Shown here piece after piece: positions 4,209 to 62,077 of a stretch of DNA of 64,000 nt. This DNA comes from a virus. Its lineage: Duplodnaviria; Heunggongvirae; Uroviricota; Caudoviricetes. Both the position numbers and the translations under genes were made by a program. The stretch is taken from positions 43,329-107,328 of the IMG/VR virus record IMGVR_UViG_3300033076_000972, one strand, 5' to 3'. Under the pieces are notes generated by a model. That model was given only the letters and a program-made list of their open reading frames with translations, was not told where the DNA came from and did not search any database. The stretch's first letter is position 1. Each line of letters begins with the position of its first letter.

Positions 4209-4214
4209 AGAGAT

Positions 4215-7079: not shown

Positions 7080-7080
7080 A

Positions 7081-8596: not shown

Positions 8597-8605
8597 AATT
8601 AAATT

Positions 8606-9950: not shown

Positions 9951-10209
9951 TATACTTGGTGAAAAATATCACATTGATTTTCAAAAAATTGAAGATTTAA
10001 TTACAATAAAACAAACCGAATCTGGTGACACTGAACAAAACGTAAGTATTGTTAAGTTTGAACTAATTAAAACTATGTTAGATGTTGTCTTATCAGAATC
10101 AGGAGACATTGATGAGAAGATGGGAATGAAAGGGTCAAATGACTTAACTCTTCCCTTTAAATTTGCTTTTAATACATTATTAAGATACGGTATAATACAA
10201 ACATTATGA
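9943..10209 (+). CDS. Hypothetical protein
   Basis: ORF with overlapping start and stop relative to its neighbours. Confidence 0.45.
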   Translation: MFNILGEKYHIDFQKIEDLITIKQTESGDTEQNVSIVKFELIKTMLDVVLSESGDIDEKMGMKGSNDLTLPFKFAFNTLLRYGIIQTL

Positions 10210-11261: not shown

Positions 11262-11263
11262 TT

Positions 11264-12073: not shown

Positions 12074-12828
12074 TGTTATTAGCTGAAGAAATTCAAAGTG
12101 GAACTACCGAGTCCTTAGAATCAAAACGCAGTAAAAAAGTTAAGTCAAATAATTACTTTGACGTAAGAGAAGAAACTGCGGTTGTTATGTTTTTACAGGC
12201 AGAGACAATGAAAGAAAGGAACGAAATCTACAATGAATTTTTAAAAAAACCAATTGAGAAAATGGTATCTTCAATTATTAGAAGATACAAACTATATAGG
12301 AAAGATATGTCGTTTGAGGAAATCTTAAACGACACTCATTCTTTTCTGATTACCAAGTCAGACAAATTTATACCCGACAAAAATAAAAAGGCTTACTCTT
12401 ATTTTGGTACAATCTGTAAAAATTATTTGATGGGTCAAATAATTAAAGACCAAAAAGATACAAATAGAAAAGTATCATATGAAGATATATCATCTAGTTT
12501 AGAGGAAAGACCTGATTTGGTTTACTATATTGAAAATGATGTTGTTGAAACCGACAAAATAATCATGGATTATATTGGTCAACTAAAGTCTTTTATTGAG
12601 TCGTCATCTTTAAATGAAAATGAAGTAAAATTAGGTTATGCCTTATTAGAGTTATTTGAAAATTATGACAGTATTTTTGTAGGTAATGATAATAAAAAAT
12701 TTAATAAAAATTTAGTATTAATGTCTATCCGTGAGATGACAAATTTATCGACAAAGGAAATTAGGTTAAGTATGAAAAAGTACAAAAAACTATACTTTGA
12801 TTTTGTTAAAAACATTGATAACAGATAA
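12073..12828 (+). CDS. Hypothetical protein (weak sigma-factor region-2-like stretch)
   Basis: The segment EIYNEFLKKPIEKMVSSIIRRYKLY loosely resembles sigma-70 region 2.1-2.2. This is not conclusive. Confidence 0.3.
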   Translation: MLLAEEIQSGTTESLESKRSKKVKSNNYFDVREETAVVMFLQAETMKERNEIYNEFLKKPIEKMVSSIIRRYKLYRKDMSFEEILNDTHSFLITKSDKFIPDKNKKAYSYFGTICKNYLMGQIIKDQKDTNRKVSYEDISSSLEERPDLVYYIENDVVETDKIIMDYIGQLKSFIESSSLNENEVKLGYALLELFENYDSIFVGNDNKKFNKNLVLMSIREMTNLSTKEIRLSMKKYKKLYFDFVKNIDNR

Positions 12829-33933: not shown

Positions 33934-34434
33934 TTATGAGTTTAGTCCTCCAAATCCACCTAATTCTACCGCTCCTCCTTGTGGTGCAATTCCTCTTTGA
34001 TTTCCCATAAACATAGGGTTATTTGTGTTGAAAGTTACAACACTTCCATCCGTACTTCCTGTGCCTGGTACATAACCAACAATAGGTTGATTATAAATGT
34101 TTACAGGTGCAGTTCTTGGATAGTTTGAAGGTGTAGGAGTAATAGTAGGTGTTATTGTTGGTGTAACCGTAACAGTTGCAGTTGGAGTTATTGTTGGTGT
34201 TTGAGTTACTGTTGGTGTAACTGTTTTGGTTGGCGTAAGAGTTGGTGTAACAGTTCTAGTTGGTGTAATACTTGGTGTTACACTAATTGTAGGAGTTACA
34301 GTTGGTGTTGGTGTTTTTGTTGCGGTAACACTTGGGGTTGGCGTTTTTGTTGGCGTAATACTTGGTGTTACGGTAATTGTTGGGGTTACCGTAGGTGTTG
34401 GTGTAGGAGTAGGTGTCGGTGTTTCGGTCGCCAT
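33934..34434 (-). CDS. Pro/Thr-repeat (mucin-like linker) protein
   Basis: About 115 residues of (T/V/I/S)P T repeats, then a C-terminal folded region of about 50 aa. Confidence 0.45.
34140..34420. repeat. Degenerate 6-9-nt Pro/Thr codon repeats (GGTGTn / GTTGGn)
   Basis: Seen directly. Encodes TPTxTPT on the - strand. Confidence 0.7.
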
Positions 34435-41381: not shown

Positions 41382-41765
41382 GGGGATGAATGGAATCGAC
41401 AGGTATTGTTGATTGATGGATGCACGTATGAGCTGAGTTAACTCATTAAAAACTGATTTAAAAAATTAGACGGCAACGTTTTGAACAAAATGGCAGCTAT
41501 CGGTTTAATCCGTGAAGATGCTTCTGTATTAGCTTAATTGTTAGTACAACTCAGGTCGGGGGACATATAACCTAGGAACAGAAGTCTTGAGAGATGTGGT
41601 TTCTATCTTAAAAGAAACAAGTGGAGGATTAGTTCTCAGTAAACCGAACCACTATAAAATAAGGGAATTGTGAAGTTCGGAACATTAGCAAATGTTGACC
41701 TAAACGTGTAGTATCTATTGGTTAAGGTAGACTGGACGAGGGTTCGATACCCTCCATCTCCACCA
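41382..41765 (+). ncRNA. ssrA: tmRNA (SsrA), phage-encoded, with the CCA encoded in the DNA
   Basis: The 5' end GGGGATGAATGGAATCGACAGG aligns with E. coli GGGGCUGAUUCUGGAUUCGACGGG. The 3' end GGACGAGGGTTCGATACCCTCCATCTCCACCA aligns with GGACGCGGGUUCAACUCCCGCCAGCUCCACCA. A 7-bp acceptor stem (GGGGATG/CATCTCC, one G-U pair) and a T-arm GAGGG-TTCGATA-CCCTC are present. Upstream of the tag, AAAAAUUAGAC is followed by the resume codon GGC at 41472, giving the tag GNVLNKMAAIGLIREDASVLA and a TAA at 41535. Confidence 0.8.
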
Positions 41766-41771
41766 AATTAA

Positions 41772-41800
41772 AGTGGTCAAATTTGACCACTTTTTTTTTT
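41772..41800 (+). terminator. Intrinsic terminator after the tmRNA
   Basis: AGTGGTCAAATTTGACCACT hairpin followed by T10. Confidence 0.75.
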
Positions 41801-41856
41801 GTAAATTAGAAAAATTGTCGTATCTTTGTATTGTTAATCACTACCACTATGACAAC
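41791..41856 (+). repeat. Direct repeat copy 1 (T-run + promoter + 5' gene start), about 65 nt
   Basis: Near-identical to 42331-42395, with three mismatches. Confidence 0.8.
41799..41828 (+). promoter_or_regulatory. Promoter TTG-N19-TATCTTTG (duplicated cassette, copy 1)
   Basis: TTG at 41799 and TATCTTTG at 41821-41828. The ATG at 41849 is about 14 nt from the predicted TSS. Confidence 0.55.
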
Positions 41857-42310: not shown

Positions 42311-42311
42311 A

Positions 42312-42339
42312 AATTTCCCTCTTCGGAGGGATTTTTTTT
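42312..42339 (+). terminator. Intrinsic terminator
   Basis: CCCTCTTCGGAGGG hairpin followed by T8. Confidence 0.75.
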
Positions 42340-42395
42340 GTAAATTAGAAAAATTGCCGTATCTTTGTATTGTTAATCACTACCACTATGACAAA
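42331..42395 (+). repeat. Direct repeat copy 2
   Basis: Near-identical to 41791-41856. Confidence 0.8.
42338..42367 (+). promoter_or_regulatory. Promoter TTG-N19-TATCTTTG (duplicated cassette, copy 2)
   Basis: TTG at 42338 and TATCTTTG at 42360-42367. Confidence 0.55.
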
Positions 42396-49685: not shown

Positions 49686-50026
49686 TATAATAACGTGTTA
49701 CCTTTCCCTCTTTTAATTCCTGATTCCCATTTAGTGACACCAACTTGATTGGCTTTACCTCTTGTCAAACCTGATTCCCATTTAGTATTACCAACAGGAT
49801 TTGCCTTACCTCTTGATACACCTGATTCCCATTTTGTAACTGATGGGTATCCTTTTCCGCCCTTTTCACTTGTTGATGTACTTGATGAAGATGAAGAAGG
49901 TGCTGACGATGATGGTGTTGATGGTTCAGGAGCAGCCGCTGGTTCAGCAGCAGGTTCCTCATCTTCTACCATCATAAGTTGTTTGATTCTTTTTAATTCT
50001 TCATTCAGCATTACCAATAAATACAA
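49685..50026 (-). CDS. Small protein with a 3x 17-aa tandem repeat (TKWESG-x3-RGKAN-x-VG)
   Basis: Comes from a 51-nt DNA tandem repeat at 49719-49871. The N-terminus is Ala/Pro/Ser-rich. Confidence 0.45.
   Translation of the reverse strand: MYLLVMLNEELKRIKQLMMVEDEEPAAEPAAAPEPSTPSSSAPSSSSSSTSTSEKGGKGYPSVTKWESGVSRGKANPVGNTKWESGLTRGKANQVGVTKWESGIKRGKGNTLL
49719..49871. repeat. 51-nt tandem repeat x3
   Basis: The CCTGATTCCCATTT… units begin at 49719, 49770 and 49821. Confidence 0.8.
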
Positions 50027-50038
50027 CGTTATTGTATA

Positions 50039-50371
50039 TTATTCGTATTCTGCAGGTGGAATTTTATCAGGGTAAACAACATAGAATTCATTTAAAAAAG
50101 ACATAAGTTCATCTTCATCCAAATATTCAGGGAACTCATTATCAAATTCTAAAGAATCATCATCAAATAACCAGTCAGTCGCTGGTGCTAAATAATCAAA
50201 CCCAAATTCTTCAAAGAAGTTGTTTTCGATTACATCGGTCCTAACCATGTCCTCTTCATCGTTCATTAATCTAAAGGTGACTTCAGTAATGTTTTCAGAT
50301 TGGTGGTAGGAAATAATTTCAACTATTTCCATTTTGTTTTGTTGCAAAAAATATTTATCTTTGCTTATCAA
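50039..50371 (-). CDS. Acidic hypothetical protein
   Basis: ORF. Confidence 0.4.
   Translation of the reverse strand: MISKDKYFLQQNKMEIVEIISYHQSENITEVTFRLMNDEEDMVRTDVIENNFFEEFGFDYLAPATDWLFDDDSLEFDNEFPEYLDEDELMSFLNEFYVVYPDKIPPAEYE
50334..50363 (+). promoter_or_regulatory. Promoter TTG-N19-TATCTTTG
   Basis: TTG at 50334 and TATCTTTG at 50356-50363, upstream of the small + strand gene at 50415. Confidence 0.45.
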
Positions 50372-50414
50372 AATATCTTAATAAATTACAAAAGACACAG
50401 TAAATCCAAAAAAT

Positions 50415-50627
50415 ATGTTATTTAAAAAAACTAAATCCGAACCAAATTTGATTGAATTTCGTAAAGCTTGCGTTGTTATTGATTCATGTAAGACATATTC
50501 ACAACTAAAAACAGCGTTGAATTATGCCAATCTTTATTACGCTAAAAATAAAGATTATGCAACTCATCAACACTTGATGAAGTTAATTGCCAAAAAACTT
50601 GAGGAAACTAAATTAGTTAAATTTTGA
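50415..50627 (+). CDS. Small hypothetical protein
   Basis: 70-aa ORF with its own consensus promoter. Confidence 0.45.
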   Translation: MLFKKTKSEPNLIEFRKACVVIDSCKTYSQLKTALNYANLYYAKNKDYATHQHLMKLIAKKLEETKLVKF

Positions 50628-51311
50628 GAATCTTTTAAACCAATTCAAAGATTCTTGGATTGATTCTTTTACTTTTTCAGGGTCTTCAATACCTTCAAAA
50701 GTATCTGTTGAACCAAATGGTCCTGGTGAATCAAACTCGTATGCTGGTTTTTCTTCAGGGTACATTTCTTCACCGTCAGCTGATAAATCTAATGACATGT
50801 CATTTTTATCATCTAATGAATAAACATCATCGTGTTGGAATTGTTCAGGACCTTTAGAATCAAAATCATAATTATCAAAGTCTAATTCTGAATAAGGTTC
50901 AGCAACTTCATTTACACCTTCGTACATTCCACCACACTCATTACAAACACCTTCATTATACATTCCACCACATTCACACATTTCATTTTCAACATAATCA
51001 AATGCTCCGTAATGTGGTTCAGCAACAGGTCCACCTGCTTTGTATCCACACTCCATACATTCACCTTCATACATGTTACCACCACACTCACATTTTTCAC
51101 CCATTGATTCATTAATACCAACGTTGGTATAAGATTTAACCTCACCTTTATTATTAACTGTTACACCGCCTTTATCACCCGCTGGGTCATAAGTGTGAAT
51201 TCTGTTATCAGGTTCAGGAAATCTTAATGTTTGATAACCATCATATGGTTTATTATGTTGGCTTAATAAGGCTTGTTTTTCTTCGTCAGAAATGTTTAAC
51301 ATGTATCTCAT
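50613..51311 (-). CDS. Cys-rich repeat protein (3x CECGG-x-MYEG-x-C-x-ECG)
   Basis: KCECGGNMYEGECMECGYKAGG, MCECGGMYNEGVCNECGGMYEG and related units suggest zinc-ribbon-like repeats. Confidence 0.45.
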   Translation of the reverse strand: MRYMLNISDEEKQALLSQHNKPYDGYQTLRFPEPDNRIHTYDPAGDKGGVTVNNKGEVKSYTNVGINESMGEKCECGGNMYEGECMECGYKAGGPVAEPHYGAFDYVENEMCECGGMYNEGVCNECGGMYEGVNEVAEPYSELDFDNYDFDSKGPEQFQHDDVYSLDDKNDMSLDLSADGEEMYPEEKPAYEFDSPGPFGSTDTFEGIEDPEKVKESIQESLNWFKRFSKFN

Positions 51312-51471
51312 ACCTAATAAATATAATAATTTTCTAAAATCTACTTGATTCTAAAATTAAACTTTATTACAATTTCATTACAGGGTTAGGGAATGGTAAT
51401 TTAAGTCTCAAAGCATCTTGGTAATTTGTAAAAGCCCTAAATTCCATTCCACCCTTTTTTAAAACTAAAAA

Positions 51472-51768
51472 ATGAACTTTAATATAGATTTGGATGAATA
51501 CGCTGAAGGAGCCATTTTATTAGATGGACTTGAAGAAGCAATTATTGGTATTGTTGAAGAATTTGGAAACGGAAGAAGGGTCTTATATTCAAAACCAAAA
51601 ATATTATCAATCCTATGTGAAAGAGATTTGATGACAATGGGTGAGGCAGAAGAATTCTATGACTATAACATTTTAGGTTTACATGCTGGTGAACAAAATG
51701 CGGTTTTCTTGGATGTAGAAATTTTACCTGAAAAAACCGATGACGGTTACAAATATTTGATTCCTTAA
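51472..51768 (+). CDS. Hypothetical protein
   Basis: 98-aa ORF. Confidence 0.4.
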   Translation: MNFNIDLDEYAEGAILLDGLEEAIIGIVEEFGNGRRVLYSKPKILSILCERDLMTMGEAEEFYDYNILGLHAGEQNAVFLDVEILPEKTDDGYKYLIP

Positions 51769-51787
51769 TTTTTTTATTGTATCTTTG
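51757..51787 (+). promoter_or_regulatory. Promoter TTG-N20-TATCTTTG; the ATG lies about 5 nt from the -7 box, which implies a leaderless or near-leaderless mRNA
   Basis: TTG at 51757, TATCTTTG at 51780-51787, and the first ATG at 51792. Confidence 0.5.
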
Positions 51788-51791
51788 TAAC

Positions 51792-52442
51792 ATGAAATTG
51801 ATTTTAGAAAAGAATCAACAATTGTTTTTTACAAGTGATACTCACTATTCACACTCAAACATCTGTCGTGCAACGACTCGTTGGAACGGTGCGGATAATT
51901 TGACTCGTGATTTTAAATCGCTTGAACACATGAATGACACATTGGTAAACAATATCAATGAAGTTGTTGGTGAAAATGACATTTTGATTCACTTGGGTGA
52001 CTGGTCTTTTGGTGGATTTGAACAAATTCAAGATTTCCGTAATCGAATTTTGTGTAAAAACATTCACTTAATTTACGGAAACCACGACCACCACATTAGA
52101 AGAAATAAAGGTGATATACAAGAGATTTTTAGTTCAACTCAAGATTATATACACTTGGATTTAAGGATTCCAAACGGTAAAGAAGTTGATAAAATGACTT
52201 TGGTTTGTATGCACTACCCAATTGCAAGTTGGGATGGAATGAACGATGGTGTAATCCACTTACACGGTCACGTTCACTTACCACCTAATTTAAGACTTGC
52301 CGAAGGTAAAGCGATGGATGTTGGTGTTGACGGAAATAATTTGTATCCTATCAACATAAAAGAAATCCGTTCTATTATGAAAGATAGACCTCACAGAAAA
52401 TTAACATTACCTAAAGACCATCACGAAAAAAGAATTGACTAA
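51792..52442 (+). CDS. Calcineurin-like metallophosphoesterase
   Basis: Motifs SDTHYSH (D-x-H), GDWSFGG (GD), GNHDHH (GNHD/E) and HGHVH (GH-x-H). Confidence 0.75.
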   Translation: MKLILEKNQQLFFTSDTHYSHSNICRATTRWNGADNLTRDFKSLEHMNDTLVNNINEVVGENDILIHLGDWSFGGFEQIQDFRNRILCKNIHLIYGNHDHHIRRNKGDIQEIFSSTQDYIHLDLRIPNGKEVDKMTLVCMHYPIASWDGMNDGVIHLHGHVHLPPNLRLAEGKAMDVGVDGNNLYPINIKEIRSIMKDRPHRKLTLPKDHHEKRID

Positions 52443-52443
52443 T

Positions 52444-52866
52444 ATGACAACTTATACATCACAAGGAAAAAACCTTTATCTATTACGTGGAGTACCAGGA
52501 GCTGGTAAATCTACATTGGCAAAACAACTTGGTTGTACTCATTTTGAGACTGACACTTATTTTATGGTAGACGGTGAATACAAATTTGACCCGTCCAAAT
52601 TAAAAGATGCTCACAAGTGGTGTCAAGATGAAGTACATAATGCGATGATTCTGAATATCACCACAGGTGAACATTCTGATATTGTAGTTTCTAATACATT
52701 TACCCAAGCATGGGAAATGGAACCATATATGGAACTTGCTAAAAGTTGGGGATATAGAGTATTTTCATTGGTTGTTGAGCATAGACACGAGGGGTCTAAT
52801 CAACACAATGTTCCCGAAGAAAAGTTACAACAAATGACTGACAGATTTGAACTTAAATTAAAATAA
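52444..52866 (+). CDS. P-loop polynucleotide kinase-like protein (5'-OH kinase candidate)
   Basis: Walker A LLRGVPGAGKSTLAKQLG resembles the T4 Pnk and bacterial Pnkp kinase domains. It is 143 aa and starts 1 nt after the phosphoesterase stop. Confidence 0.55.
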   Translation: MTTYTSQGKNLYLLRGVPGAGKSTLAKQLGCTHFETDTYFMVDGEYKFDPSKLKDAHKWCQDEVHNAMILNITTGEHSDIVVSNTFTQAWEMEPYMELAKSWGYRVFSLVVEHRHEGSNQHNVPEEKLQQMTDRFELKLK

Positions 52867-52871
52867 AATAT

Positions 52872-53699
52872 ATGATTAAAAAACTAACACTTACGATGAT
52901 GGTGTTGTTTGCCACCTTAACAGCAAACGCAAGATGTGATTGGAGTAAAGTTACTCTCCAACAATGGAATTCTGGAACTTATTACAAATGGTACTTGAGA
53001 GGTTTTGATGTTGATTCTTGTAAATCAATGACGTTCCTAATGTATGATTTTCAGACTAAAAAAATTGACACGTTGTACCAACTTAACGGTTTGTGTCAAG
53101 TATCGTTTAATGTACCTGGTACATATAAACTCTATGTCAAATTGATTGACAAATGTAACAAGTGTGATACCGCTTTGTATCGTACGGTTGAAATTCAAAG
53201 ATGGTCACCAAAGGCATCTTATTCGGGTAAATTGGTAACTTGTGATAGTTTGGTTGGTGAAATGACCAAAGTAACTACAACTGACACTTGTTACCGTTAT
53301 TATTACACATTATATCATGGTGATGAATTAGATTCACTAACTCAACAACAATGGGATACTATGAGTGAAATGGATTTAGCAGTATCATATTCTTGGAACC
53401 CAAATGATGTTCATTATTATTCTGATAATTCAAGATTGATTAAATATAAATTTCCACATAATGGTAGATTCTTATTATTAGTTCAATACTATAATACATG
53501 TAATGAACAAGATACGTTCTTTATTCGAAAATATACGATTAATTGTAATTCTATTGGTCTTACAGAGTTGAAAAAATCGGAACCTAAATTGATTGGTGTT
53601 TATGATATGATGGGTCGACCTGTTCCATATATTCGTAAAGAAGAAATTTTAATTTACCTTTATGATAATGGAACAACCAAAAAGGTATTAATACACTAA
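52872..53699 (+). CDS. Secreted Cys-rich protein with a putative T9SS type-A C-terminal sorting domain
   Basis: Signal peptide MIKKLTLTMMVLFATLTANA. The C-terminal VYDMMGRPVPY…IYLYDNGTTKKVLI resembles the Por_Secre_tail (vYDllGRkV…GvYfv) consensus. Confidence 0.4.
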   Translation: MIKKLTLTMMVLFATLTANARCDWSKVTLQQWNSGTYYKWYLRGFDVDSCKSMTFLMYDFQTKKIDTLYQLNGLCQVSFNVPGTYKLYVKLIDKCNKCDTALYRTVEIQRWSPKASYSGKLVTCDSLVGEMTKVTTTDTCYRYYYTLYHGDELDSLTQQQWDTMSEMDLAVSYSWNPNDVHYYSDNSRLIKYKFPHNGRFLLLVQYYNTCNEQDTFFIRKYTINCNSIGLTELKKSEPKLIGVYDMMGRPVPYIRKEEILIYLYDNGTTKKVLIH

Positions 53700-53720
53700 T
53701 TTTATTTATTTCAAATATTT

Positions 53721-53756
53721 AAAATCCCCCACCTTAAAAATGGGGGATTTTTTTTA
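53721..53756 (+). terminator. Intrinsic terminator
   Basis: AAAATCCCCCACCTTAAAAATGGGGGATTTTTTTT. Confidence 0.7.
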
Positions 53757-53803
53757 CACTCAGAATACCTTTTAATGACTATTATTGTCTATACTTATAA
53801 AAT

Positions 53804-56800
53804 ATGAAGAAGTTATTGCTTTTTATGATGTTCTTGTTCAGTTTCTTGACTGTACAAGCAACCCACATGATGGGTGCAGATGTTTCCTACAAATGTTTGG
53901 GAAATGGAAAATATAAAATTATTGCTAAAGTTTACCGAGATTGTAGGGGTGTGTCTATGGGTACACCATCATTTGGTGCTTATGCAGGGTTAAACGGTGG
54001 AAATGGTTGTGGTAACTATACACTAAGTGGATTATCAAGGGTTTCAATTAAAGATGTTACCACAAGATGCTCAACTACTAGTAACCCGTGTGGTTCACCT
54101 AACTCAGCGTTTGCTAATAAAGGTGTTGAGGAACACACATTTGAAGCTACGATTGATTTTAATACGTCACCATTAAATAATTTTGTTAATAAATCAACAT
54201 GTTGTGAGGTTACATTTTATGTAAATGAATGTTGTAGAAATGGTGCAATTAGTACAGGTCAAGCCTCTCAAAATTTTTATGCAACTGCAATGATTAATAT
54301 TTGTAACCTTCAGAAAATGAAGGACAAATGTAACAGTTCACCACAACTATCAAACCCACCTATTGCCTTTCTATGTTGTAATCAGCCTTGGTATTATAAT
54401 AATGGTGCCATAGATACAATAGATTATGATTCAATTTCATATAAATTAGTCAATGGACTTCAAGGTATTCCAAATAGTTCGGTATCATACGCCTCACCAT
54501 TTACCGCAAAAGTTCCCATGACACCGTATTGTGTACCACCTACAACCATAAACTGTGTGCCAAACCCAAAAACAAATCCACCGAGAGGTTTTTATTTTGA
54601 CACCACAAATGGTGATGTTATTACGACACCAACTAAATGTGATGAATCTGCCGTTATATGTGTTGAACAGACTGAATGGAGAAAAGATACGTCAGGTGTA
54701 TGGCGTGTAATTGGTAGAACAAGACGTGACATGCAAGTTTGGGTTAGGGATGATTGTGGTTATAATAAAGCACCAACTCTTGGTCCAAAGTTTACATATC
54801 AAGTTTGTGAGGGTGAAACATTAAAATTCAAAGTGGAATCTGACGATGAAACATTTACACCGTATCAAACAACTCCTGACACAACAACAATGAAGTGGAA
54901 TGCGGGTATTCCCGGTGCAAAGTTTACATTAGCAAATAAAAGTGATTGGCCTGAAAAACGTAAGTCATATGCTTGGTTTGAATGGACACCTCCGATTGGT
55001 TCAGCTTCTGATATATCATATTCATTTACAGTTACAGTTAGTGACCAACACTGTGAACCACCAGCAACATCAATTCGTTCATTCAAGATTAAGGTTAATC
55101 CAAAACCTAAATCAAAACGTAGATATACACAATTAAAGTGTGGTAGGTTTGCCATGGAAGCATATGAAATATATGCAGCATCAAGTTATTCTTGGAGTGT
55201 TAGAGATACCTTAGCGAAAGAATTATTTTACTCTTCAAAGAAAACAGATACCATGAACTATTACTATGAAGGTAAGTACATTATAGTTCATAAATTAACA
55301 AGTGCTCAGTCATGTGTAACAATTTATAGTGATACTGTTTATCTAACACAACCACCAAAAGTAATATTGGCCGATGCTGATAGTTTTGCTTGTTATGGAA
55401 CAACTTTCAATCTCAAAGCAAAAGTTATTGCGGGTAAACCTACGTTGAAATATAAGTGGAACAACGGTGATACTTTGGACTATACCACAATCAAAAACTT
55501 CAAAAAAGATTCAACATTGATGTTGGAAGTAACGGATGGTGATGGTTGTAAATTCCGTGATACAACAAAAACATTTGTTAAACCATTACCTGTTGTTAGT
55601 TTGGGTTCAGATAAAGTTATCTGTACATATGAAACTAACACATTTGATGGTCAAAACAACGATACCGTAAAATACTTGTGGAGTACTGGTGATACTACCC
55701 GTTACATGACAACTAATCTCAAGGGAATCTATTGGGTTAAAATTACTGACACCACATATATGTGTGTTAAATACGACACGGCAATATTAGTTGTGAATGA
55801 TACTGTAATATCCAATGCGGGACCAAACCAAGCAATTTGTGATAAAGACACATTCATATTAAAGGCAACACACAATCCGTTTATTTTAACTCCAACATAT
55901 ACTTGGGGTGGATTGGGTAATTTGTCAACCTATAAGTTGAAATCTGATATAACAAAATCAGCTTATATGTTTACATTGAAGACGGTGATTACTCAAAATG
56001 GTCACACCTGTGAAGACATGGATACTATTTTTGTTAGAGTTAAACCATTACCAAAAATTAGTTGGAATCCAAAACCATTAAAACCACAATGTTATTCTTA
56101 TGGTGATATTTGGATGGAACCATTCTTGGTTAAACCTCATAACTTTGGAACATATGAAATATGGAGCGGAAGCAAAAATAAAATAGGAAACATTGTTACG
56201 AATCCATCTAACGGACGATTCCTGTTCAACACCCAATCATTGGACAACAGCAAACTACAGGGAGGTAATAACTACACCACCAAAATGTATGTTAAGTTTA
56301 ATGATACAAATGGTTGTTATAATATAGATTCAACAACCCAAGTAATTTATGGTACTCCATTAATTCAGTTAAAAAGTGCAACTGTTTGTCAGAACGCTAA
56401 ATTTTTAATGATGGACAATGTGAGAGTAAGACCCGCAACCAAAAACGGTGTAAGTATGTTATGGCAGGTAGTGAGAGGACCTGCAGGTGTTGACACTTCC
56501 AAGTTATTGATGAATATCTCAACAAATTCAACACCAAACATAATGTTTTGGTTTGGCACTGGCAATTCAAATTACTATAAGGGAAAATATACATTCAGAC
56601 TTACTGTTAAAGACGTACTCACTGGTTGTCAAAGCACAGATACTGTTGACATAAACGTTGCTGGTGAACCCGTTGTTTCATTAAAACCTCTACCAATATT
56701 CTGTGAGAACTCAGGTGTGAATATCAATTTGTTTGATTATGTTGATGTCAGTTATGTTACGGGTGGAATTGTAACAAAAAAACTGTCTATTCAAGATGTT

Positions 56801-58345
56801 AACGGTGATAAAAATGACCCAAGAGTGTTGACTGATTTATCCTCAGGATTTTTCAGAACAAGTCTTGGTGTGGGAACATATAAGATTAAAGTTCTTAGTA
56901 CAATATTGGACCCTAATTATTTAGTAACATGCTCAAGAGTAGATAGTTTCGATGTTGTTATCAGTTATAAACCTGACCTCAGAAAAATAGATATGGGTTT
57001 TTGTTCTACTCGTCCTTGGCCATTTGATTTGAAAACAGTAATTACATCTGAAAGTTGGGGTGTTGTAAAAATCACTTATCCTGATGGGGAATTTTTTACA
57101 CCCACTCCAAAGGCAAAAGGGTATATTGGTGGATTTAATAATCCCTATAAATTCATGATGGTAGGTGAAAGTCAATATGGTTGTAAAGATACTGAAATAC
57201 TAAAACTCACTGTGATGAATCAACCTGAGATTAAATTTGTTCCACCATTTGTAAGTTGTGGTAAAGATACTTGGACTCTAAAATTGGATACTGCGAATAT
57301 TGACCCAGCAGTTAAATTTAGATGGGTTGTTAATACAGGTCTTTATGATACTTTAACACCTCCTGGTGGAGAAGTGATTGGTGGAAAATGGGGGTTTGGT
57401 AAAAAACAATATATTCCAGATAACAAAGATACCTCAAGGGGTTACTTCACGGTAAAATTCAAATCATGGAATGCACCTCTTTGTGCTAAAGTTATTGACT
57501 CTGTTAAAGTTTTAATAACACCTTATCCTGAACCAGACTTTATAACAACAAATGGGTGTCAACCACATTCTATAATGTTCACACCAACAGAAAAAAGAGG
57601 TATCAAATCGATGACTTATTCTTGGGGAATAAATGATACATTTTCACAAGGTGGTAATTCAAGTTGGTCAAAGACATTTACTGACGTTGGATATTACAGA
57701 ACATCTTTAAGTGCTGTCAATACAACATTTACTCCCGACAAAATATGTGGAACTGTGATTACTAAAACATTTGAGGTATATCCAAAACCATACGCAATAT
57801 TTAGTACTGACCCATTATATAAAACAACAATTGCTTTACCTAGATTTAAGACGATAAACTCATCAAGTGTTAGTCAAAATCCATTTATAACTAAATTGGA
57901 TTACAGTTGGAGTTGGGGAAAAACATTCAAAACGGGTACTGACTCTACCAAGTCACCAAACATTATATTTGGTAAAGATACAGGACTATATTGGATTAAG
58001 TTAGTAACGACTACAGATAAAGGGTGTAAAGATTCTACCATGACTCGTGTTGTTATTGGACCTGATATTATAATATTTGTCCCTGACGCATTCACACCTG
58101 ATAATGCTGGTCCAAATGAAAACAATACATTTATTCCAAAAGTTACTAATCATAAAACATTTTATATGGGTGTTTACAACCGCTGGGGTGAAAAATTGTA
58201 TGAAACAACTGACCTAACAAAAGGTTGGGATGGTAATTATTTAGGAAAATCAGCACAACAAGGGGTTTATGTATATAAAATTATTGTAACTTCAATGGAA
58301 GATAAGGTTTTTCAATATAACGGAACTTTTACATTACTTAGATAA
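53804..58345 (+). CDS. Giant secreted adhesin-like protein with a T9SS type-B (gliding-motility-associated) C-terminal domain
   Basis: Signal peptide MKKLLLFMMFLFSFLTVQA, then 1513 aa that are Cys/Thr/Asn-rich. The C-terminal FVPDAFTPDNAGPNENNTFIP…GVYNRWGEKLYETTDLTKGWDGNYLGKSAQQGVYVYKI matches the SprB-type CTD consensus (fsPNGDGiND…FNRWGekvf…gWDG…GvYyY). Confidence 0.8.
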   Translation: MKKLLLFMMFLFSFLTVQATHMMGADVSYKCLGNGKYKIIAKVYRDCRGVSMGTPSFGAYAGLNGGNGCGNYTLSGLSRVSIKDVTTRCSTTSNPCGSPNSAFANKGVEEHTFEATIDFNTSPLNNFVNKSTCCEVTFYVNECCRNGAISTGQASQNFYATAMINICNLQKMKDKCNSSPQLSNPPIAFLCCNQPWYYNNGAIDTIDYDSISYKLVNGLQGIPNSSVSYASPFTAKVPMTPYCVPPTTINCVPNPKTNPPRGFYFDTTNGDVITTPTKCDESAVICVEQTEWRKDTSGVWRVIGRTRRDMQVWVRDDCGYNKAPTLGPKFTYQVCEGETLKFKVESDDETFTPYQTTPDTTTMKWNAGIPGAKFTLANKSDWPEKRKSYAWFEWTPPIGSASDISYSFTVTVSDQHCEPPATSIRSFKIKVNPKPKSKRRYTQLKCGRFAMEAYEIYAASSYSWSVRDTLAKELFYSSKKTDTMNYYYEGKYIIVHKLTSAQSCVTIYSDTVYLTQPPKVILADADSFACYGTTFNLKAKVIAGKPTLKYKWNNGDTLDYTTIKNFKKDSTLMLEVTDGDGCKFRDTTKTFVKPLPVVSLGSDKVICTYETNTFDGQNNDTVKYLWSTGDTTRYMTTNLKGIYWVKITDTTYMCVKYDTAILVVNDTVISNAGPNQAICDKDTFILKATHNPFILTPTYTWGGLGNLSTYKLKSDITKSAYMFTLKTVITQNGHTCEDMDTIFVRVKPLPKISWNPKPLKPQCYSYGDIWMEPFLVKPHNFGTYEIWSGSKNKIGNIVTNPSNGRFLFNTQSLDNSKLQGGNNYTTKMYVKFNDTNGCYNIDSTTQVIYGTPLIQLKSATVCQNAKFLMMDNVRVRPATKNGVSMLWQVVRGPAGVDTSKLLMNISTNSTPNIMFWFGTGNSNYYKGKYTFRLTVKDVLTGCQSTDTVDINVAGEPVVSLKPLPIFCENSGVNINLFDYVDVSYVTGGIVTKKLSIQDVNGDKNDPRVLTDLSSGFFRTSLGVGTYKIKVLSTILDPNYLVTCSRVDSFDVVISYKPDLRKIDMGFCSTRPWPFDLKTVITSESWGVVKITYPDGEFFTPTPKAKGYIGGFNNPYKFMMVGESQYGCKDTEILKLTVMNQPEIKFVPPFVSCGKDTWTLKLDTANIDPAVKFRWVVNTGLYDTLTPPGGEVIGGKWGFGKKQYIPDNKDTSRGYFTVKFKSWNAPLCAKVIDSVKVLITPYPEPDFITTNGCQPHSIMFTPTEKRGIKSMTYSWGINDTFSQGGNSSWSKTFTDVGYYRTSLSAVNTTFTPDKICGTVITKTFEVYPKPYAIFSTDPLYKTTIALPRFKTINSSSVSQNPFITKLDYSWSWGKTFKTGTDSTKSPNIIFGKDTGLYWIKLVTTTDKGCKDSTMTRVVIGPDIIIFVPDAFTPDNAGPNENNTFIPKVTNHKTFYMGVYNRWGEKLYETTDLTKGWDGNYLGKSAQQGVYVYKIIVTSMEDKVFQYNGTFTLLR

Positions 58346-58346
58346 T

Positions 58347-58532
58347 ATGAAATTGATTAAAATTATTTTTTTGTGTATTTTATTAGTAGGGTGTGAAAAA
58401 GAACCAATTAACATAAACACTGAAAAACTTAAAAAATATCAAAGTGAAATTAAAACAACTCCTAAAAAAAATAGAAGAAAGTTTAAATTGGGTAAAAAGT
58501 CGTTCCATCTTTCAAAAATTCTAAAGAAATAA
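58347..58532 (+). CDS. Small lipoprotein
   Basis: Lipobox LLVGC (MKLIKIIFLCILLVGCEK), 61 aa, with a terminator after it. Confidence 0.45.
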   Translation: MKLIKIIFLCILLVGCEKEPININTEKLKKYQSEIKTTPKKNRRKFKLGKKSFHLSKILKK

Positions 58533-58535
58533 TTT

Positions 58536-58569
58536 AAAAACCCAAGATTTGATTATCTTGGGTTTTTTT
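58536..58569 (+). terminator. Intrinsic terminator
   Basis: AAAAACCCAAGATTTGATTATCTTGGGTTTTTTT. Confidence 0.75.
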
Positions 58570-58583
58570 ATTATAATAACTTC

Positions 58584-59264
58584 ATGAAAAAAAATATAAT
58601 AGGGATGATACTTTTAATCATTTTAGTAATTTTCTGTTTTATTAATATAAGTTCGAATTTATATTCAAAACCAAATTTACCAAATGATACCATAATTGTA
58701 ATACCAAAAGTTCAAGATACCGTTGTTGATATTAACGGAAAGTATGGAACTTTTATTGGTGATTCACACACATCAAATCATAATTCAGGATGGCAAGTTA
58801 TTGTTTGTAAAAAAACGGGTTTAAGAATGAACAATTTGTCTGTTTCAGGTAAAACAACAGGTTGGATGCTTGAAACTGCTAAAGTATCATTACACAAAGG
58901 TATTGATTATTGTTTTGTCTATGGTGGTGCCAATGATATGTATACAAAATCAATCACACCTAAAAGAGCGGTTTCAAATATTCAACAAATAGTTGATTTA
59001 TGTCACACATATAACATTCATTGTGTTGTTTTAACAGGTTTTGACCCGATTAAATGTACAAGAACATCAAATCCGGCTTATGGTCCAAGATACGCTCAAT
59101 TTCAAAAAATGTTAATGGATTCAATATCAGGTGCAACTGTTGTTGACACACGTGTAATTGATAGAACTGGATGTTGGGATGAATTATGTCATATGAATCC
59201 TGAAGGGCACAAAAAGATTGGGATGGAAGTAATTAAAACAATGAAATTTCATATTATCAAATAA
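58584..59264 (+). CDS. SGNH/GDSL-family hydrolase with an N-terminal signal anchor
   Basis: Block I FIGDSHT (GDS-x), block III GGANDM (G-x-ND) and block V DELCHMNPEGH (D-x-x-H). Hydrophobic N-terminus. Confidence 0.7.
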   Translation: MKKNIIGMILLIILVIFCFINISSNLYSKPNLPNDTIIVIPKVQDTVVDINGKYGTFIGDSHTSNHNSGWQVIVCKKTGLRMNNLSVSGKTTGWMLETAKVSLHKGIDYCFVYGGANDMYTKSITPKRAVSNIQQIVDLCHTYNIHCVVLTGFDPIKCTRTSNPAYGPRYAQFQKMLMDSISGATVVDTRVIDRTGCWDELCHMNPEGHKKIGMEVIKTMKFHIIK

Positions 59265-59270
59265 TTTTAT

Positions 59271-59278
59271 TATCTTTG
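59271..59278 (+). promoter_or_regulatory. -7 box TATCTTTG (no clear -33 TTG) directly upstream of the RNA ligase gene
   Basis: The motif sits 5 nt before the GTG at 59283. Confidence 0.3.
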
Positions 59279-59282
59279 TACT

Positions 59283-60317
59283 GTGTTACCTAAACTGAAC
59301 AAATATCATAATGATGGACTGTTATATAAACAGACACACCCAACATTACCGTTAACTATATGGAACTACACACCTGCGGTTCAATACGGTGAAAAATGGG
59401 ATGAAGTTACCTTGGCTTGTAGAGGTTTAGTTACTGACAACGAAGGTAATATTGTTGCAAGACCATTTAAAAAATTCTTCAATATAGAGGAAAACAAACA
59501 CACACCTACCCAAGATTTTGAAGTTTTTGAAAAAATGGATGGTTCTTTGGGTATTATATTCAAATACAATGGTGAAGTGATTTACGCAACTCGTGGTTCA
59601 TTCACATCTGACCAGGCGAAATGGATGGAAAACTACTGTAAAGAATATAACTTCAAAGATATATTAGTTGAAGGATTTACCTACCTATTTGAAATTATCT
59701 ATCCTGAAAACCGTATTGTTGTTGACTATGAAGGTCAAGAAAGATTGGTTTTACTCGGTATAATTAAAACTGAAACAGGTGAAGAAATACCGTATGATGA
59801 TATTGTGGTTGCGCCTTGGGATATTGTAGAAAAATATGATGGTATTCGGGATTATTCCGAATTAAAGAATAAAGTTTTACAAAATCATGAGGGATTTGTA
59901 GTTCGTTTTTCTAATGGAGACCGAATGAAAATCAAAGGTGAGGAATATCTACGTCTACATAAAATAATGACCAATATATCAACTACTGGTGTATGGGAAC
60001 ACTTATCAAAAGGTGGTGATATAAATGATTTACTCAAAGACGTACCTGATGAATTTTACAAGAAAGTAAAAGAATATGCGGATTTACTTAAGTATGGTTA
60101 TTATCAAGTTTCTGAATATTGTGGAAAAGCTCACGACTATTTCCGATATGGAAAGTATAATGATAGAGAAGTAGAACCAACTAAAAAACAATTTGCAGAC
60201 CACGTTATGAATTATGGTCATCCACCATATAGAGCAGTAATGTTTGCAATGTGGGATAAAAAACCTTATGATAAATTGATATGGAACATATTAAAACCGG
60301 AATTTAAAAAACTATAA
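59283..60317 (+). CDS. ATP-dependent RNA ligase, Rnl1 family (T4 RnlA-like)
   Basis: Motif I FEKMDGSLG (K-x-DGSL), motif IV HEGFVVRF and motif V MKIKGEEY. The N-terminal stretch ACRGLV…RPFKKFFNIEEN parallels T4 Rnl1 ECRGIMF…RPMEKFFNLNEN. The only in-frame start is GTG. Confidence 0.75.
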   Translation: MLPKLNKYHNDGLLYKQTHPTLPLTIWNYTPAVQYGEKWDEVTLACRGLVTDNEGNIVARPFKKFFNIEENKHTPTQDFEVFEKMDGSLGIIFKYNGEVIYATRGSFTSDQAKWMENYCKEYNFKDILVEGFTYLFEIIYPENRIVVDYEGQERLVLLGIIKTETGEEIPYDDIVVAPWDIVEKYDGIRDYSELKNKVLQNHEGFVVRFSNGDRMKIKGEEYLRLHKIMTNISTTGVWEHLSKGGDINDLLKDVPDEFYKKVKEYADLLKYGYYQVSEYCGKAHDYFRYGKYNDREVEPTKKQFADHVMNYGHPPYRAVMFAMWDKKPYDKLIWNILKPEFKKL

Positions 60318-60321
60318 AATT

Positions 60322-60591
60322 ATGCCAGATTTTACATCAGAAATTGAAATTGACGTTGAGGAGTTTTGGGACGAGTGCTCAAGACATGAACGTGAAGAAT
60401 TAGTTGACCTTTTAGAAGAACAAGGATATGTTAAAAGAGCTATCCCTAAAGGTGTTAAACCATCTCATTACACACCAAACTTAATGGAAATTGAGTGGAA
60501 TGAAACTATGGATAAGTTATCACAATTAAGATTACGAATTACTCGTGATGAAGAAGAAATTATAAAAGCATTGGTAAAAAAATATCTATGA
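60322..60591 (+). CDS. Hypothetical protein
   Basis: ORF. Confidence 0.4.
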   Translation: MPDFTSEIEIDVEEFWDECSRHEREELVDLLEEQGYVKRAIPKGVKPSHYTPNLMEIEWNETMDKLSQLRLRITRDEEEIIKALVKKYL

Positions 60592-60965
60592 GAAACTCAA
60601 AAACATATTACTCAGAAAAGAGTGAAAAAAACGAATTTTTGGAAATCTATTGGGTTAAAGATAAATACATCCCTAAAGAATACCAAGAGCTAACGGTTAA
60701 TTTAAATGGTAGTTATCACAGCTATGACATAAATAATTTTAATAGGTACACTATTGAGTCAATATCAAGAGGTTATATCCAAAATGTAACTTTTGGCGAT
60801 AAGTGGATTACCGATACTGAGTTTGTTAAAAAATTTACAAAAATATTGATACCAATCGTTGAGGAATTTAAAAAAGATGTTGAATACCGTTATTCACTTG
60901 ATGGATGGATTGGTAGAATTTTTATAGAACCTGTTGAGAATTTTTTTGACTGGTTAAAAAAATAG
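60588..60965 (+). CDS. Hypothetical protein
   Basis: ORF with an ATGA overlap. Confidence 0.4.
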   Translation: MRNSKTYYSEKSEKNEFLEIYWVKDKYIPKEYQELTVNLNGSYHSYDINNFNRYTIESISRGYIQNVTFGDKWITDTEFVKKFTKILIPIVEEFKKDVEYRYSLDGWIGRIFIEPVENFFDWLKK

Positions 60966-60981
60966 TTGTATATTTGAAGAC

Positions 60982-61239
60982 ATGTTAAAGAAATTTTATA
61001 ACCTCGAGTTTGGATTACAGATGCTAATTACAGCATTAGTACTGTTTTTCAGTAATCAACTGACAACTTATACATTAAGTATGTGTAACCTACCAAGTAC
61101 CATTATTGTAAATCTTGGATTAATTCTAACTTTTGTAATATTTTTAATTCAAACAATTGCAATCTTTGTTGGAATCAAAGCAATTATTAATTACGTAAAA
61201 CAAACAAAAACAAAAAATAACGATGAGCAATCTAACTAA
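60982..61239 (+). CDS. Small membrane protein (two TM helices)
   Basis: Hydrophobic segments ITALVLFFS and LILTFVIFLIQTIAIFVGI. Confidence 0.4.
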   Translation: MLKKFYNLEFGLQMLITALVLFFSNQLTTYTLSMCNLPSTIIVNLGLILTFVIFLIQTIAIFVGIKAIINYVKQTKTKNNDEQSN

Positions 61240-62077
61240 ACTTTTAATCGGAGTATCGGCATTGGTACTTTTGATTTTCGGATTCACAGGATGTGAACGA
61301 ATTGACGCAGGACACGTAGGTGTTAAAGTAAATCTTTATGGTGATGGTAAAGGTGTGGACGATGTAACTGAGGTTACGGGATGGGTATTGTATAACCCAA
61401 TCTCAACCAAAATTGTCGAGTTCCCAACTTACGTTCAACACAAAGAATATAAGAAAACTGAAGATGGTATTGACGAATCTTTTGTAGTAAACTCTAAAGA
61501 TGGTTCTGAATTTCATTGTTCTCCAATGGTGAACTACGCTGTAAAACGTGAGAAGGTTCCATATATCTTTGCAAAGTATCGTGTTGAGTTGGACCGAATT
61601 GAATCGGGTTTCTTGAAGACATCTATATTTGACGCATTCCGTGTGGTAGCCAACAGTTATACTGCGGACGCACTTATATCTAATCGACAGGAATTTGAAA
61701 TCAAAGTACGACAGGTATTGGAAAAACAACTCGCACCTGAAGGTTTTATATTACAACAATTTACATCAAACTTGGTTTACCCTGAAACGTTTAAAAAGGC
61801 AATTGAAGCTAAGAACAACGCAGTACAGTCGGCACTTATGGCGGAAAATCAGGTTAAAACTGCTGAAGCACAGGCAAGAATTAAAATTGCAACCGCAGAA
61901 GGTAACGCACAGGCTTTATTGACAAACGCAAGAGCTGAGGCGGAATCTAACAAGTTGAGACAACAAACTTTAACACCGTTGTTACTTCAACAAATGTGGA
62001 TTGAGAAATGGCAAGGAAGTGTACCAAGTACTGTACTTGGAAGTGGTCAAAACTTAATGTTTGGATTGAACAAATGA
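61223..62077 (+). CDS. SPFH/band-7 (prohibitin / HflC-like) lipoprotein
   Basis: Lipobox LLIFGFTGC. The IDAGHVGVKVNLYG stretch marks the SPFH domain start, and the C-terminal coiled coil AEAQARIKIATAEGNAQALLTNARAEAESNKLRQ is typical of HflK/C and prohibitins. Confidence 0.55.
   Translation: MSNLTKLLIGVSALVLLIFGFTGCERIDAGHVGVKVNLYGDGKGVDDVTEVTGWVLYNPISTKIVEFPTYVQHKEYKKTEDGIDESFVVNSKDGSEFHCSPMVNYAVKREKVPYIFAKYRVELDRIESGFLKTSIFDAFRVVANSYTADALISNRQEFEIKVRQVLEKQLAPEGFILQQFTSNLVYPETFKKAIEAKNNAVQSALMAENQVKTAEAQARIKIATAEGNAQALLTNARAEAESNKLRQQTLTPLLLQQMWIEKWQGSVPSTVLGSGQNLMFGLNK

Follow-up and report, generated by a model that had tools for sequence, protein, structure and literature searches.

Why would a phage carry genes for proteins that appear bound for the surface of its host? 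The question is raised by a 64,000-nucleotide stretch of a tailed-phage genome (IMG/VR record IMGVR_UViG_3300033076_000972, positions 43,329 to 107,328; hereafter the window), in which four consecutive plus-strand open reading frames (ORFs) lie where a sequence-only reading of the same DNA had placed them (Table 1). They encode a 275-aa protein, a giant protein of 1513 aa, a 61-aa lipoprotein and an SGNH-type esterase. The sequence-only reading took them for phage-borne surface cargo of the Bacteroidota type IX secretion system (T9SS). We find a cluster of putatively exported proteins that includes a type B cargo and is exchangeable between phages; its part in surface remodelling or superinfection exclusion would follow from this only by inference. 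With a probability of roughly 0.6, we regard the locus as a recombination hot spot that holds a variable cassette of exported proteins, with the giant protein as the phage-adapted type B cargo of a chromosomal Bacteroidota family and remodelling of the host surface as its role. A lineage of large freshwater Bacteroidota phages would then be keeping, under purifying selection, a type B cargo of 1500 residues that derives from a surface-protein family of the host.

By its domains, the giant protein appears to be a genuine type B T9SS cargo, and it is adhesin-like. The type B model TIGR04131 matches aa 1426-1513 with a score of 39 bits (cutoff 35) and an alignment that spans positions 3-85 of its 85, and Pfam CHU_C (PF13585) scores 40.4 bits (cutoff 27), with a PKD_4 match besides. 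The C-terminal domain (CTD) had been called almost textbook for gliding motility; its type B assignment holds with both models, but the margin over the cutoffs is narrow. Many columns of the last 100 aa are invariant in phage and cellular copies (FxPxxFTPxxxGxN..F, NRWGE, GWDG, GxYxY and G[TS]xTLxR). At the other end, a predicted signal peptide (aa 1-20; MKKLLLFMMFLFSFLTVQA, followed by TH) combines a basic n-region with a hydrophobic core (Kyte-Doolittle 2.66) and a V-Q-A site by the heuristic described below, and the AlphaFold2 (AF2) model places a helix at aa 2-13 ahead of a low-confidence linker. The most conserved part of the protein, aa 21-535, consists of a Cys-rich all-beta N-terminal region and Ig/cadherin-like domains, and is followed by more variable PKD/Ig-like repeats (aa ~536-1413). 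Only adhesin-like folds of the Ig, cadherin and Siglec types were found. An enzyme function for the N-terminus was considered and rejected, as beta-sandwich adhesin folds were all that was found there. The description 'SprB-like' suits the CTD class and little else: a Pfam scan gave CHU_C and PKD_4 alone, with no SprB repeats, and the downstream gene encodes the 61-aa lipoprotein rather than a PorP/SprF-like barrel.

The export signals of the cluster were called with a hydrophobicity and charge heuristic applied to all 75 non-overlapping ORFs of the window. All four cluster proteins have signal-like N-termini; elsewhere in the 64 kb, such N-termini were found only on an 85-aa membrane protein and an SPFH lipoprotein (60982-62077).

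The giant protein has 680 homologs, nearly all of 1450-1580 aa and collinear over their full length. For homologs of at least 55% identity, all contexts examined were phage-like (RNA ligases, Band_7, thymidylate synthase, Gp23, Mtd_N, endolysins and tail-fibre-like genes), and full-length copies occur in 8 distinct phage-like contexts at different genome positions. Homologs of 33-49% identity instead have housekeeping genes around them, on contigs that reach 1 Mb. When one genome per species was scanned, 435 stretches with similarity to the family were found, and the top 80 of these all lie in uncultured freshwater Bacteroidota metagenome-assembled genomes (MAGs). Several freshwater Bacteroidota MAGs hold more than one copy, and none of the cellular loci has any other window gene in common. 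In a midpoint-rooted neighbour-joining tree, all sequences of known phage context, together with P0001-P0068, form one clade, and all those of known cellular context fall outside it. At 90% identity, the phage clade divides into at least 68 clusters. Comparison of phage copies gives a dN/dS of 0.08-0.14, at a dS of ~0.8-1.2 with synonymous sites nearing saturation, which points to purifying selection on the giant gene in phages; identity among these copies is mosaic, which argues for recombination among them.

The composition of the giant gene is also that of a phage gene. Its GC content (0.346) and third-position GC content (GC3, 0.236) are within the range of the other long genes of the window, and its distance in relative synonymous codon usage (RSCU) is 0.256, against a long-gene mean of 0.343 (standard deviation 0.116). 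Set beside the flanking phage genes, the gene is thus phage-like in GC, GC3 and RSCU. Most sampled cellular copies have a GC content of 0.38-0.47; two copies from low-GC MAGs (L017 and L026) come near the phage in GC3. Purifying selection, phage-like composition and recurrence on phage contigs together argue against a recent, decaying insertion, so the suggestion that the gene is a recent moron of this phage does not stand: it is an old member of a phage clade, found at several genome positions. Identity to the cellular copies varies along the protein, from 62% at aa 20-330 and 54% at aa 331-535, through 23-35% in the middle (~536-1413, lowest at aa 891-1413), to 57% (maximum 65%) over the last 100 aa. 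We infer transfer of the gene from a cell to a phage, as the T9SS is cellular and the cellular copies keep synteny. A tblastn search of a phage collection gave no full-length homolog in cultured phages; only the last ~290 aa matched, in two uncultured megaphages of ~640 kb. These relatives are 31% identical over that part, which includes the type B CTD (LR745206.1, 578814-579626; LR756502.1, 518599-519387), so type B cargo occurs in huge phages as well.

How stable is the cluster? By anchoring on the phosphoesterase and ligase genes that flank it, we found 91 related viral loci. The variable slot begins at the 3' end of the kinase gene and ends at the RNA ligase gene. It is empty in L151/L152, where the kinase and ligase genes abut; it holds one 73-aa ORF in L147-L150, the small lipoprotein and SGNH genes in L093/L140, and the giant, small lipoprotein, 241-aa lipoprotein and SGNH genes in loci of the L008 type. 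In the L097 group it contains a 275-homolog, a 242-aa lipoprotein, a 143-aa signal-peptide protein and SGNH, and in L108/L156 a 132-aa signal-peptide protein, a ClpP-like protein, a 275-homolog and SGNH; the window has the 275-aa, giant, lipoprotein and SGNH genes. Nearly every occupant carries an export signal. Of all the occupants, the SGNH gene is the one most constantly present, and its place is always immediately upstream of the RNA ligase gene. Whether related phages lack the island, a check proposed with the sequence-only reading, therefore has a clear answer: some have an empty slot and others have different gene sets. The giant gene also occurs outside the slot, in L001, L006/L121 and L123/L127. 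We conclude from these arrangements that the cassette is probably exchangeable, a slot for flexible genes, with the giant gene as an old resident of the phage lineage. The gene is absent near the slot in the close relatives L093/L140 and is therefore presumably not essential. A strict link between the 275 family and the giant gene was considered and weakened: 275-homologs are also present in slots that lack a giant gene within 10 kb, and loci of the L008 type carry the giant gene but no 275-homolog. A 275-homolog does lie within 6 kb of the giant gene in six of the seven giant-bearing arrangements.

Related phage loci hold further T9SS-type genes. Pfam finds CHU_C in 5 further clusters and Por_Secre_tail in 3, so both cargo types appear to be recurrent in this phage group. 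Exported proteins whose C-termini are type B-like (...G[TH][FV]TL[LIV]R) or type A-like, 187-1504 aa in length, are encoded at L123:7127-9016, L171:2453-4261, L154:11012-11575, L132:15594-20108, L121:14170-15924 and L117:13822-15717. Two of the related loci also encode proteins with a Tad6 (type I Thoeris inhibitor) domain (L003:3490-4257 and L171:4454-5269). In L093, a 299-aa zinc-finger-like ORF (10936-11835, minus strand) lies between the phosphoesterase gene and a truncated 101-aa kinase ORF (L093:12047-12352); this looks like the insertion of a mobile element into or next to the kinase gene. The hot spot is a natural catalogue of candidate genes for surface remodelling and superinfection exclusion, in a phylum in which such systems are almost unknown.

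Type B cargo requires a PorP/SprF-like outer-membrane shuttle (PMC12618676) and is anchored at the surface through PorP-like proteins (PMC9143113). There was no PorP_SprF gene next to the giant gene in the phage loci, and PorP/SprF was not among the families listed for 70 exported-protein clusters in 1.58 Mb of related phage loci (~20 kb per genome). Nor was it recurrent beside 18 cellular giant homologs, whose neighbours are PCMT, aminopeptidase P, MFS transporters, Mur ligase and ClpX. Without an adjacent shuttle gene, the phage and cellular copies alike would be 'orphan' type B cargo, and as an orphan subclass is recognized, the absence of a cognate shuttle gene is compatible with type B membership. 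Flavobacterium johnsoniae has three orphan cargos with one common orphan shuttle, and CTDs that are more than ~44-50% identical cross-use shuttles; the CTD-shuttle pairing is specific and saturable, and highly produced CTD fusions remain unsecreted unless the shuttle is co-produced (PMC12618676). Because the phage CTD shares 57-65% identity with those of cellular paralogs and no shuttle gene was found in the phage loci examined, the phage protein probably uses the shuttle of the host paralogs. As type B cargo depends on a shuttle that the phage apparently does not provide, the phage protein would have to fit that of the host; viral and host adhesins would then compete for one shuttle, a prediction that can be tested.

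These observations suggest how the cassette could act. During infection, the giant protein would be made with a cleavable Sec signal, predicted from the sequence, and be exported to the periplasm, where the host T9SS would recognize its type B CTD and secrete it. It would probably be passed to the 'orphan' shuttle of the host paralogs and stay anchored at the surface, as work on cellular cargo suggests (Paillat 2025; Gorasia 2022). There it might join or displace the paralogous adhesins of the host and so alter what the infected cell displays. The likeliest benefit, on what is so far a speculative view, would be receptor masking or superinfection exclusion, with progeny spared adsorption to debris. 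SprB and RemA, which are T9SS-exported adhesins, are thought to be receptors of Flavobacterium phages, and mutants in the T9SS or in gliding resist phages broadly (PMC9804748), so the most economical benefit would be receptor masking or superinfection exclusion. The 275-aa protein, the co-translated basic lipoprotein and the SGNH esterase, which would be membrane-anchored or periplasmic, would fit such remodelling of the envelope.

Several points weigh against this reading. The export signals are heuristic calls from hydrophobicity, the type B profile score of the giant protein barely exceeds its cutoff, and a neighbour-joining tree with midpoint rooting leaves the direction of transfer unproven. 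A PADLOC scan of the cluster and its neighbours gave no matches to defence or exclusion families. In L003 and L092 the giant gene lies near tail-fibre-like genes, which leaves slight room for a virion role, and in L093/L140 it is absent within 10 kb on either side but may lie elsewhere in those genomes. The T4-type late promoter motif TATAAATA was tried and rejected: its 16 matches, where 10.9 are expected, are no significant excess, and the giant gene has none upstream of it; as the motif is not enriched, it assigns the giant gene to no temporal class, and all intergenic upstream regions, when inspected, had no shared motif that would do so.

Could the same genes serve the infected cell rather than disguise it? 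In the alternative that survives best, though we consider it unlikely, the giant adhesin and its companions keep the infected cell sticky to particles, algae and neighbouring cells, without any masking of receptors, and the gain is a sustained nutrient supply or new hosts within reach. The adhesin-like folds (Ig, cadherin and Siglec types) would suit this role. So would the N-terminal region, the best conserved part of the protein, at 90-100% identity among phage copies and 62-70% with the cellular family; near-invariance in a region that is presumably distal and ligand-binding suggests that the phage copy keeps the same ligand. The cellular paralogs are multi-copy in particle-associated freshwater Bacteroidota, and Bellas et al. 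weigh added enzymatic or virulence capabilities (PMC7468147). A lytic T4-like phage, however, has little time to gain from adhesion. Small lipoproteins and genes of the SGNH-esterase type are used by other phages to block or modify receptors, T5 Llp being one example, and the companion lipoprotein and SGNH esterase are genes of these kinds.

The purifying selection described above also bears on two explanations that we consider improbable. In the first, abundant phage cargo saturates the T9SS or the orphan shuttle and stops host secretion or gliding, so that the passenger is irrelevant. Such interference would be favoured by the absence of a phage shuttle in the loci examined, by a CTD close to those of host paralogs and by the specific and saturable CTD-shuttle pairing of F. 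johnsoniae. But a plug has no need of the 1400-aa passenger, which is under strong purifying selection throughout, strongest at the N-terminus, and the far shorter CHU_C proteins of related phages would suffice. In the second, which is slightly more improbable still, the giant Ig-repeat protein is a fibre or decoration of the virion, and its N-terminal hydrophobic segment and CTD are relics or assembly aids. Fraser et al. (2006) reportedly described Ig-like domains as common on phage structural proteins, and the same is said of PKD domains; in L003/L092 the giant gene is a few kb from Laminin_G/Lectin_C tail-fibre-like and Mtd_N genes. Yet signal peptide and type B CTD are kept under purifying selection in all phage copies, the nearest relatives are chromosomal secreted proteins, and Sec export is incompatible with virion assembly in the cytoplasm. 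In the window, moreover, the giant gene lies ~25 kb from the head/portal/terminase module, amid exported proteins.

An artefact, be it a chimeric assembly of host and phage DNA or a passive, decaying hitch-hiker, has next to no probability despite the abundance of the family in bacterial chromosomes: the order phosphoesterase-kinase-giant-lipoprotein-...-SGNH-ligase recurs on independent IMG/VR contigs from different samples, the giant ORF is intact with a dN/dS of ~0.1, its GC, GC3 and RSCU match the window, and the cellular loci have no other window gene. Chimeric host DNA in particular is ruled out by phage-like composition, recurrence on independent viral contigs and purifying selection in phages.

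If the cassette remodels the host surface, the 275-aa protein may take part by a route of its own. Its gene begins 5 nt after the kinase gene, and the protein had been assigned a type A CTD. This assignment was rejected: neither NCBIfam nor Pfam (TIGR04183, PF18962) matches the whole protein or the isolated tail at E<=10, and hhalign of the tail against true type A CTDs was weak, with 14-15 columns (a YD..GR.V hairpin) at 12-37% probability and 0.4% for a type B control. Among 120 listed family members with precomputed Pfam annotation, PF18962 occurs in 2 and is missing from the other 118; seven more carry PKD alone. A 70-100-aa Ig-like beta-sandwich is not present at the C-terminus, where the conserved tail is ~40 aa long and, in the AF2 model, a linker leads into no more than three or four short strands (aa 240-274). 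This tail is the most conserved part of the family.

To follow the tail we used an exhaustive HMMER search with a tail profile (E<=1e-3), as a word-indexed search had given uninformative fragments of 30-76 aa. The module was found on 1,658 representative proteins. Among the best 144, it ends no more than 3 residues from the C-terminus in 143, protein lengths range from 50 to 552 aa, and only 30 have the 275-type body; 68 of the 87 that are at least 200 aa long have signal-like N-termini. Other bodies bearing the tail are Laminin_G_3, internalin-like LRR, PKD, HYR, BNR and 'choice-of-anchor Q'. Pfam and NCBIfam do not recognize the module at E<=1. Carriers are chromosomal in Bacteroidota (for example, in a Crocinitomicaceae MAG and on contigs of 0.3-2.6 Mb), and some of the genes adjoin canonical Por_Secre_tail genes. 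Cellular and phage tails form one family (hhalign 99.4%), with the cellular consensus (P0342-P0452 and L184-L186) GieEL...eKeLikIvDlMGRETefKPNTpLIYiYSDGTtErVfk.E.

The tail resembles the type A CTD (PF18962/TIGR04183) in its place at the extreme C-terminus of signal-peptide proteins, in T9SS-bearing Bacteroidota, and in the 'YD..GR.V' hairpin motif. Moreover, the 275-family paralogs P0231, P0235 and L003:14693-15541 have a real Por_Secre_tail where others have the short tail. Unlike the type A CTD (70-100 aa), the tail has ~40-50 aa, and the N-terminal strands are missing from it, PNP motif included; CTDs of the known T9SS classes A, B and C all have a length of about 80-100 aa (PMC10202324). 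From its distribution, the tail behaves like a modular C-terminal sorting or anchoring element for which current libraries hold no model. We tentatively consider, as a possibility and not as the likelier case, that it is an unrecognized Bacteroidota C-terminal sorting or anchoring signal of about half the known CTD size, used by Crocinitomicaceae-type bacteria for a large number of their secreted surface proteins and taken up by phages. If so, the cassette would reach the host surface in two ways, with type B cargo through the host orphan shuttle and with the short signal, and if the tail is a secretion signal, predictions of T9SS cargo lack a class.

The two remaining proteins match what had been proposed for them. 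The 61-aa protein has a lipobox (LLVG-C16, a pattern match), and its homologs keep LLVGCEKEP; against NCBIfam it matches Lp6.6 only, at 16 bits and below the cutoff of 35. Homologs of 56-64% identity occupy the same position in L007/L008/L010, as well as in L093/L140, without the giant gene. The claim of a secreted SGNH hydrolase is supported by curated profiles that pass their cutoffs (PF13472, Lipase_GDSL_2, 51.2 bits against 32.9; PF00657, 27.3 bits against 23.6), by readable catalytic blocks (GDSH at aa 59-62, GGAND at aa 114-118 and a C-terminal D/E..H) and by the signal-like N-terminus. Its homologs are 93% identical in L007/8/10, 86% in L093, 49-51% in the L097 group and 48% in L108, and also occur in L009 and L091; it has no close relative in the PDB and no tblastn match in the phage collection.

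Each gene had been credited with its own terminator, but there are just two, after the 275-aa and lipoprotein genes, and none after the giant gene. The first hairpin has a stability of -15.2 kcal/mol (z -2.8); with its 9-nt loop it was passed over by a pattern scanner limited to loops of up to 8 nt. The second reaches -18.8 kcal/mol (z -6.4), with none of 200 shuffles as stable. At the junction of the giant and lipoprotein genes, stop and ATG are 1 base apart (TAA-T-ATG) and there is no hairpin; this arrangement suggests that the lipoprotein gene is translationally coupled to the giant gene. From the two terminators and the unstructured junction, there appear to be three transcription units: phosphoesterase-kinase-275, giant-lipoprotein and SGNH-ligase and onwards.

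The surrounding DNA is that of a phage, with genes for a major head protein (phrog_138), a portal and a large terminase at 20-30 kb; the head protein is 41-45% similar to those of T4-like phages of Flavobacterium, Microcystis and Rhodothermus, and the closest major capsid proteins are those of Flavobacterium phage immuto, Microcystis phage Mel-JY01 and Rhodothermus phage RM378. A megablast search with window positions 50000-62000 found no match in cultured phages. We conclude that this is a large T4-like phage of freshwater Bacteroidota. The cluster does lie between phage RNA-repair genes, as had been proposed, with a phosphoesterase and a kinase on the left and an Rnl1-type ligase on the right, and these three form a split Pnkp-plus-ligase RNA-repair set. 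The phosphoesterase is 79-89% identical across the related phage loci, and the ligase scores 94 bits with TIGR02308, under the cutoff of that model.

Table 1. Coordinates, in the window, of the exported-protein cluster, its signals and its flanking RNA-repair genes
Feature	Position	Strand	Details
Metallophosphoesterase, 221 aa, left flank	51777..52442	+	phrog_547 phosphoesterase, E 1e-42
P-loop (AAA_33) polynucleotide-kinase-like protein, 143 aa, left flank	52435..52866	+	PF13671 51 bits; phrog_2071, phrog_505
Exported 275-aa protein (predicted)	52872..53699	+	signal peptide, two FN3/PKD-like beta-sandwich domains, linker, C-terminal module
C-terminal ~40-aa module of the 275-aa protein, aa ~235-275	53574..53696	+	EPKLIGVYDMMGRPV...ILIYLYDNGTTKKVLIH; family conservation
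Intrinsic terminator after the 275-aa gene (predicted)	53721..53758	+	hairpin 53721-53751; 11-bp stem, 9-nt loop, U8 tail
Giant exported protein, 1513 aa (predicted)	53804..58345	+	signal peptide, Ig/cadherin/PKD-like domains, type B CTD
Type B T9SS sorting domain of the giant protein, aa 1426-1513	58079..58342	+	TIGR04131, CHU_C
Very basic predicted lipoprotein, 61 aa	58347..58532	+	lipobox MKLIKIIFLCILLVG-C16
Intrinsic terminator after the lipoprotein gene, closing the giant-lipoprotein unit (predicted)	58536..58574	+	hairpin 58536-58567; 13-bp stem, U-run
SGNH/GDSL esterase, 226 aa, with N-terminal hydrophobic anchor or signal	58584..59264	+	PF13472, PF00657
Rnl1 (T4 gp63)-type RNA ligase, 344 aa, right flank	59283..60317	+	PF09511 79 bits; phrog_562 E 2e-75

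Other parts of the window held observations of their own. On the plus strand at 60982-62077, the 85-aa membrane protein overlaps the SPFH/Band_7 lipoprotein (284 aa, phrog_200), which is 93-97% identical in L001, L006/L121, L007/L008/L010 and L093/L140; its neighbours are 56-85% identical. A full-length tmRNA gene at 41382-41765 (plus strand) was found with Rfam RF00023 (100.8 bits, gathering score 47, E 3e-38) and gave no ARAGORN call. Near-identical upstream sequences ttttttgtaaattagaaaaattg[t/c]cgtatctttgta occur at 41770-41830 and 42311-42369, each after a terminator-like hairpin, and the two ORFs downstream both start MLITTTMT; the sequences contain a TAtcTTTG element, which we take to resemble the Bacteroidota -7 promoter motif. 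Upstream of the structural module, 1266-12828 (plus strand) carries ~15 same-strand genes of ~200-550 aa, and in related loci comparable runs contain glycosyltransferases and 2OG-Fe(II) oxygenases. Within the block of structural genes, a 166-aa ORF (33934-34434, minus strand) starts with a long Thr-Pro repeat.

How does this cassette compare with known systems? SprB of F. johnsoniae and the giant protein are both large and repetitive with a type B CTD, and the giant protein would share the cell-surface location of SprB. SprB has ~6500 aa, is built of SprB repeats and is encoded next to sprF. The giant protein, unlike it, has 1513 aa, a different Cys-rich N-terminal region, no SprB repeat and no adjacent shuttle gene. 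The small lipoprotein can be likened, by size and setting alone, to T5 Llp, a phage lipoprotein that reportedly blocks the receptor after infection: both are very small lipoproteins of the outer-membrane type, encoded by a lytic phage in a cell-surface gene cluster, but the 61-aa protein has no significant family match. SprB itself is anchored through the PorP-like SprF (PMC9143113). A closer parallel for the giant protein is provided by the F. johnsoniae cargos Fjoh_1123 and Fjoh_1720 as well as Fjoh_4934, with their orphan shuttle Fjoh_1677 (Paillat et al. 2025, PMC12618676), which are likewise type B and without an adjacent shuttle gene. They are putative adhesins whose CTDs are more than 44% alike and share one shuttle, and the phage CTD is 57-65% identical to those of cellular paralogs; the likeness is one of CTD class and orphan status, and the giant cargo, unlike these, is encoded by a virus.

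Phage-encoded T9SS cargo as such is already known and thus not unprecedented. So far it has been described as a curiosity, and with type A sorting domains only. In the 76-kb 'Cryophage', three cargo genes are of type A and a GDSL lipase domain is variable, and Bellas et al. (2020), who called phage T9SS cargo a unique occurrence, proposed superinfection exclusion (PMC7468147); T9SS sorting-domain ORFs were also described on crAss-like contigs (de Jonge et al. 2019, PMC6949934). Our literature search found no paper that joins 'type B sorting domain' with 'phage'. These and the phage studied here are alike in being Bacteroidota phages with T9SS CTD cargo genes in variable regions. The variable genes of Cryophage include a GDSL lipase, as SGNH here, and the proposed role is a hijack of secretion for surface change or exclusion. 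The Cryophage and crAss-like cargos, however, are type A and are enzymes or PA14 proteins, whereas the cargo here is type B, adhesin-like, ~1500 aa long and shuttle-dependent; unlike the Cryophage cargos, it represents a large phage clade under apparent purifying selection with identifiable chromosomal counterparts. The new elements are a family of shuttle-dependent type B adhesins that a phage lineage maintains, a hot spot for exported proteins and a short C-terminal module without a model. The adhesin competition, the hot-spot genes and the short tail are all testable with existing Flavobacterium genetics.

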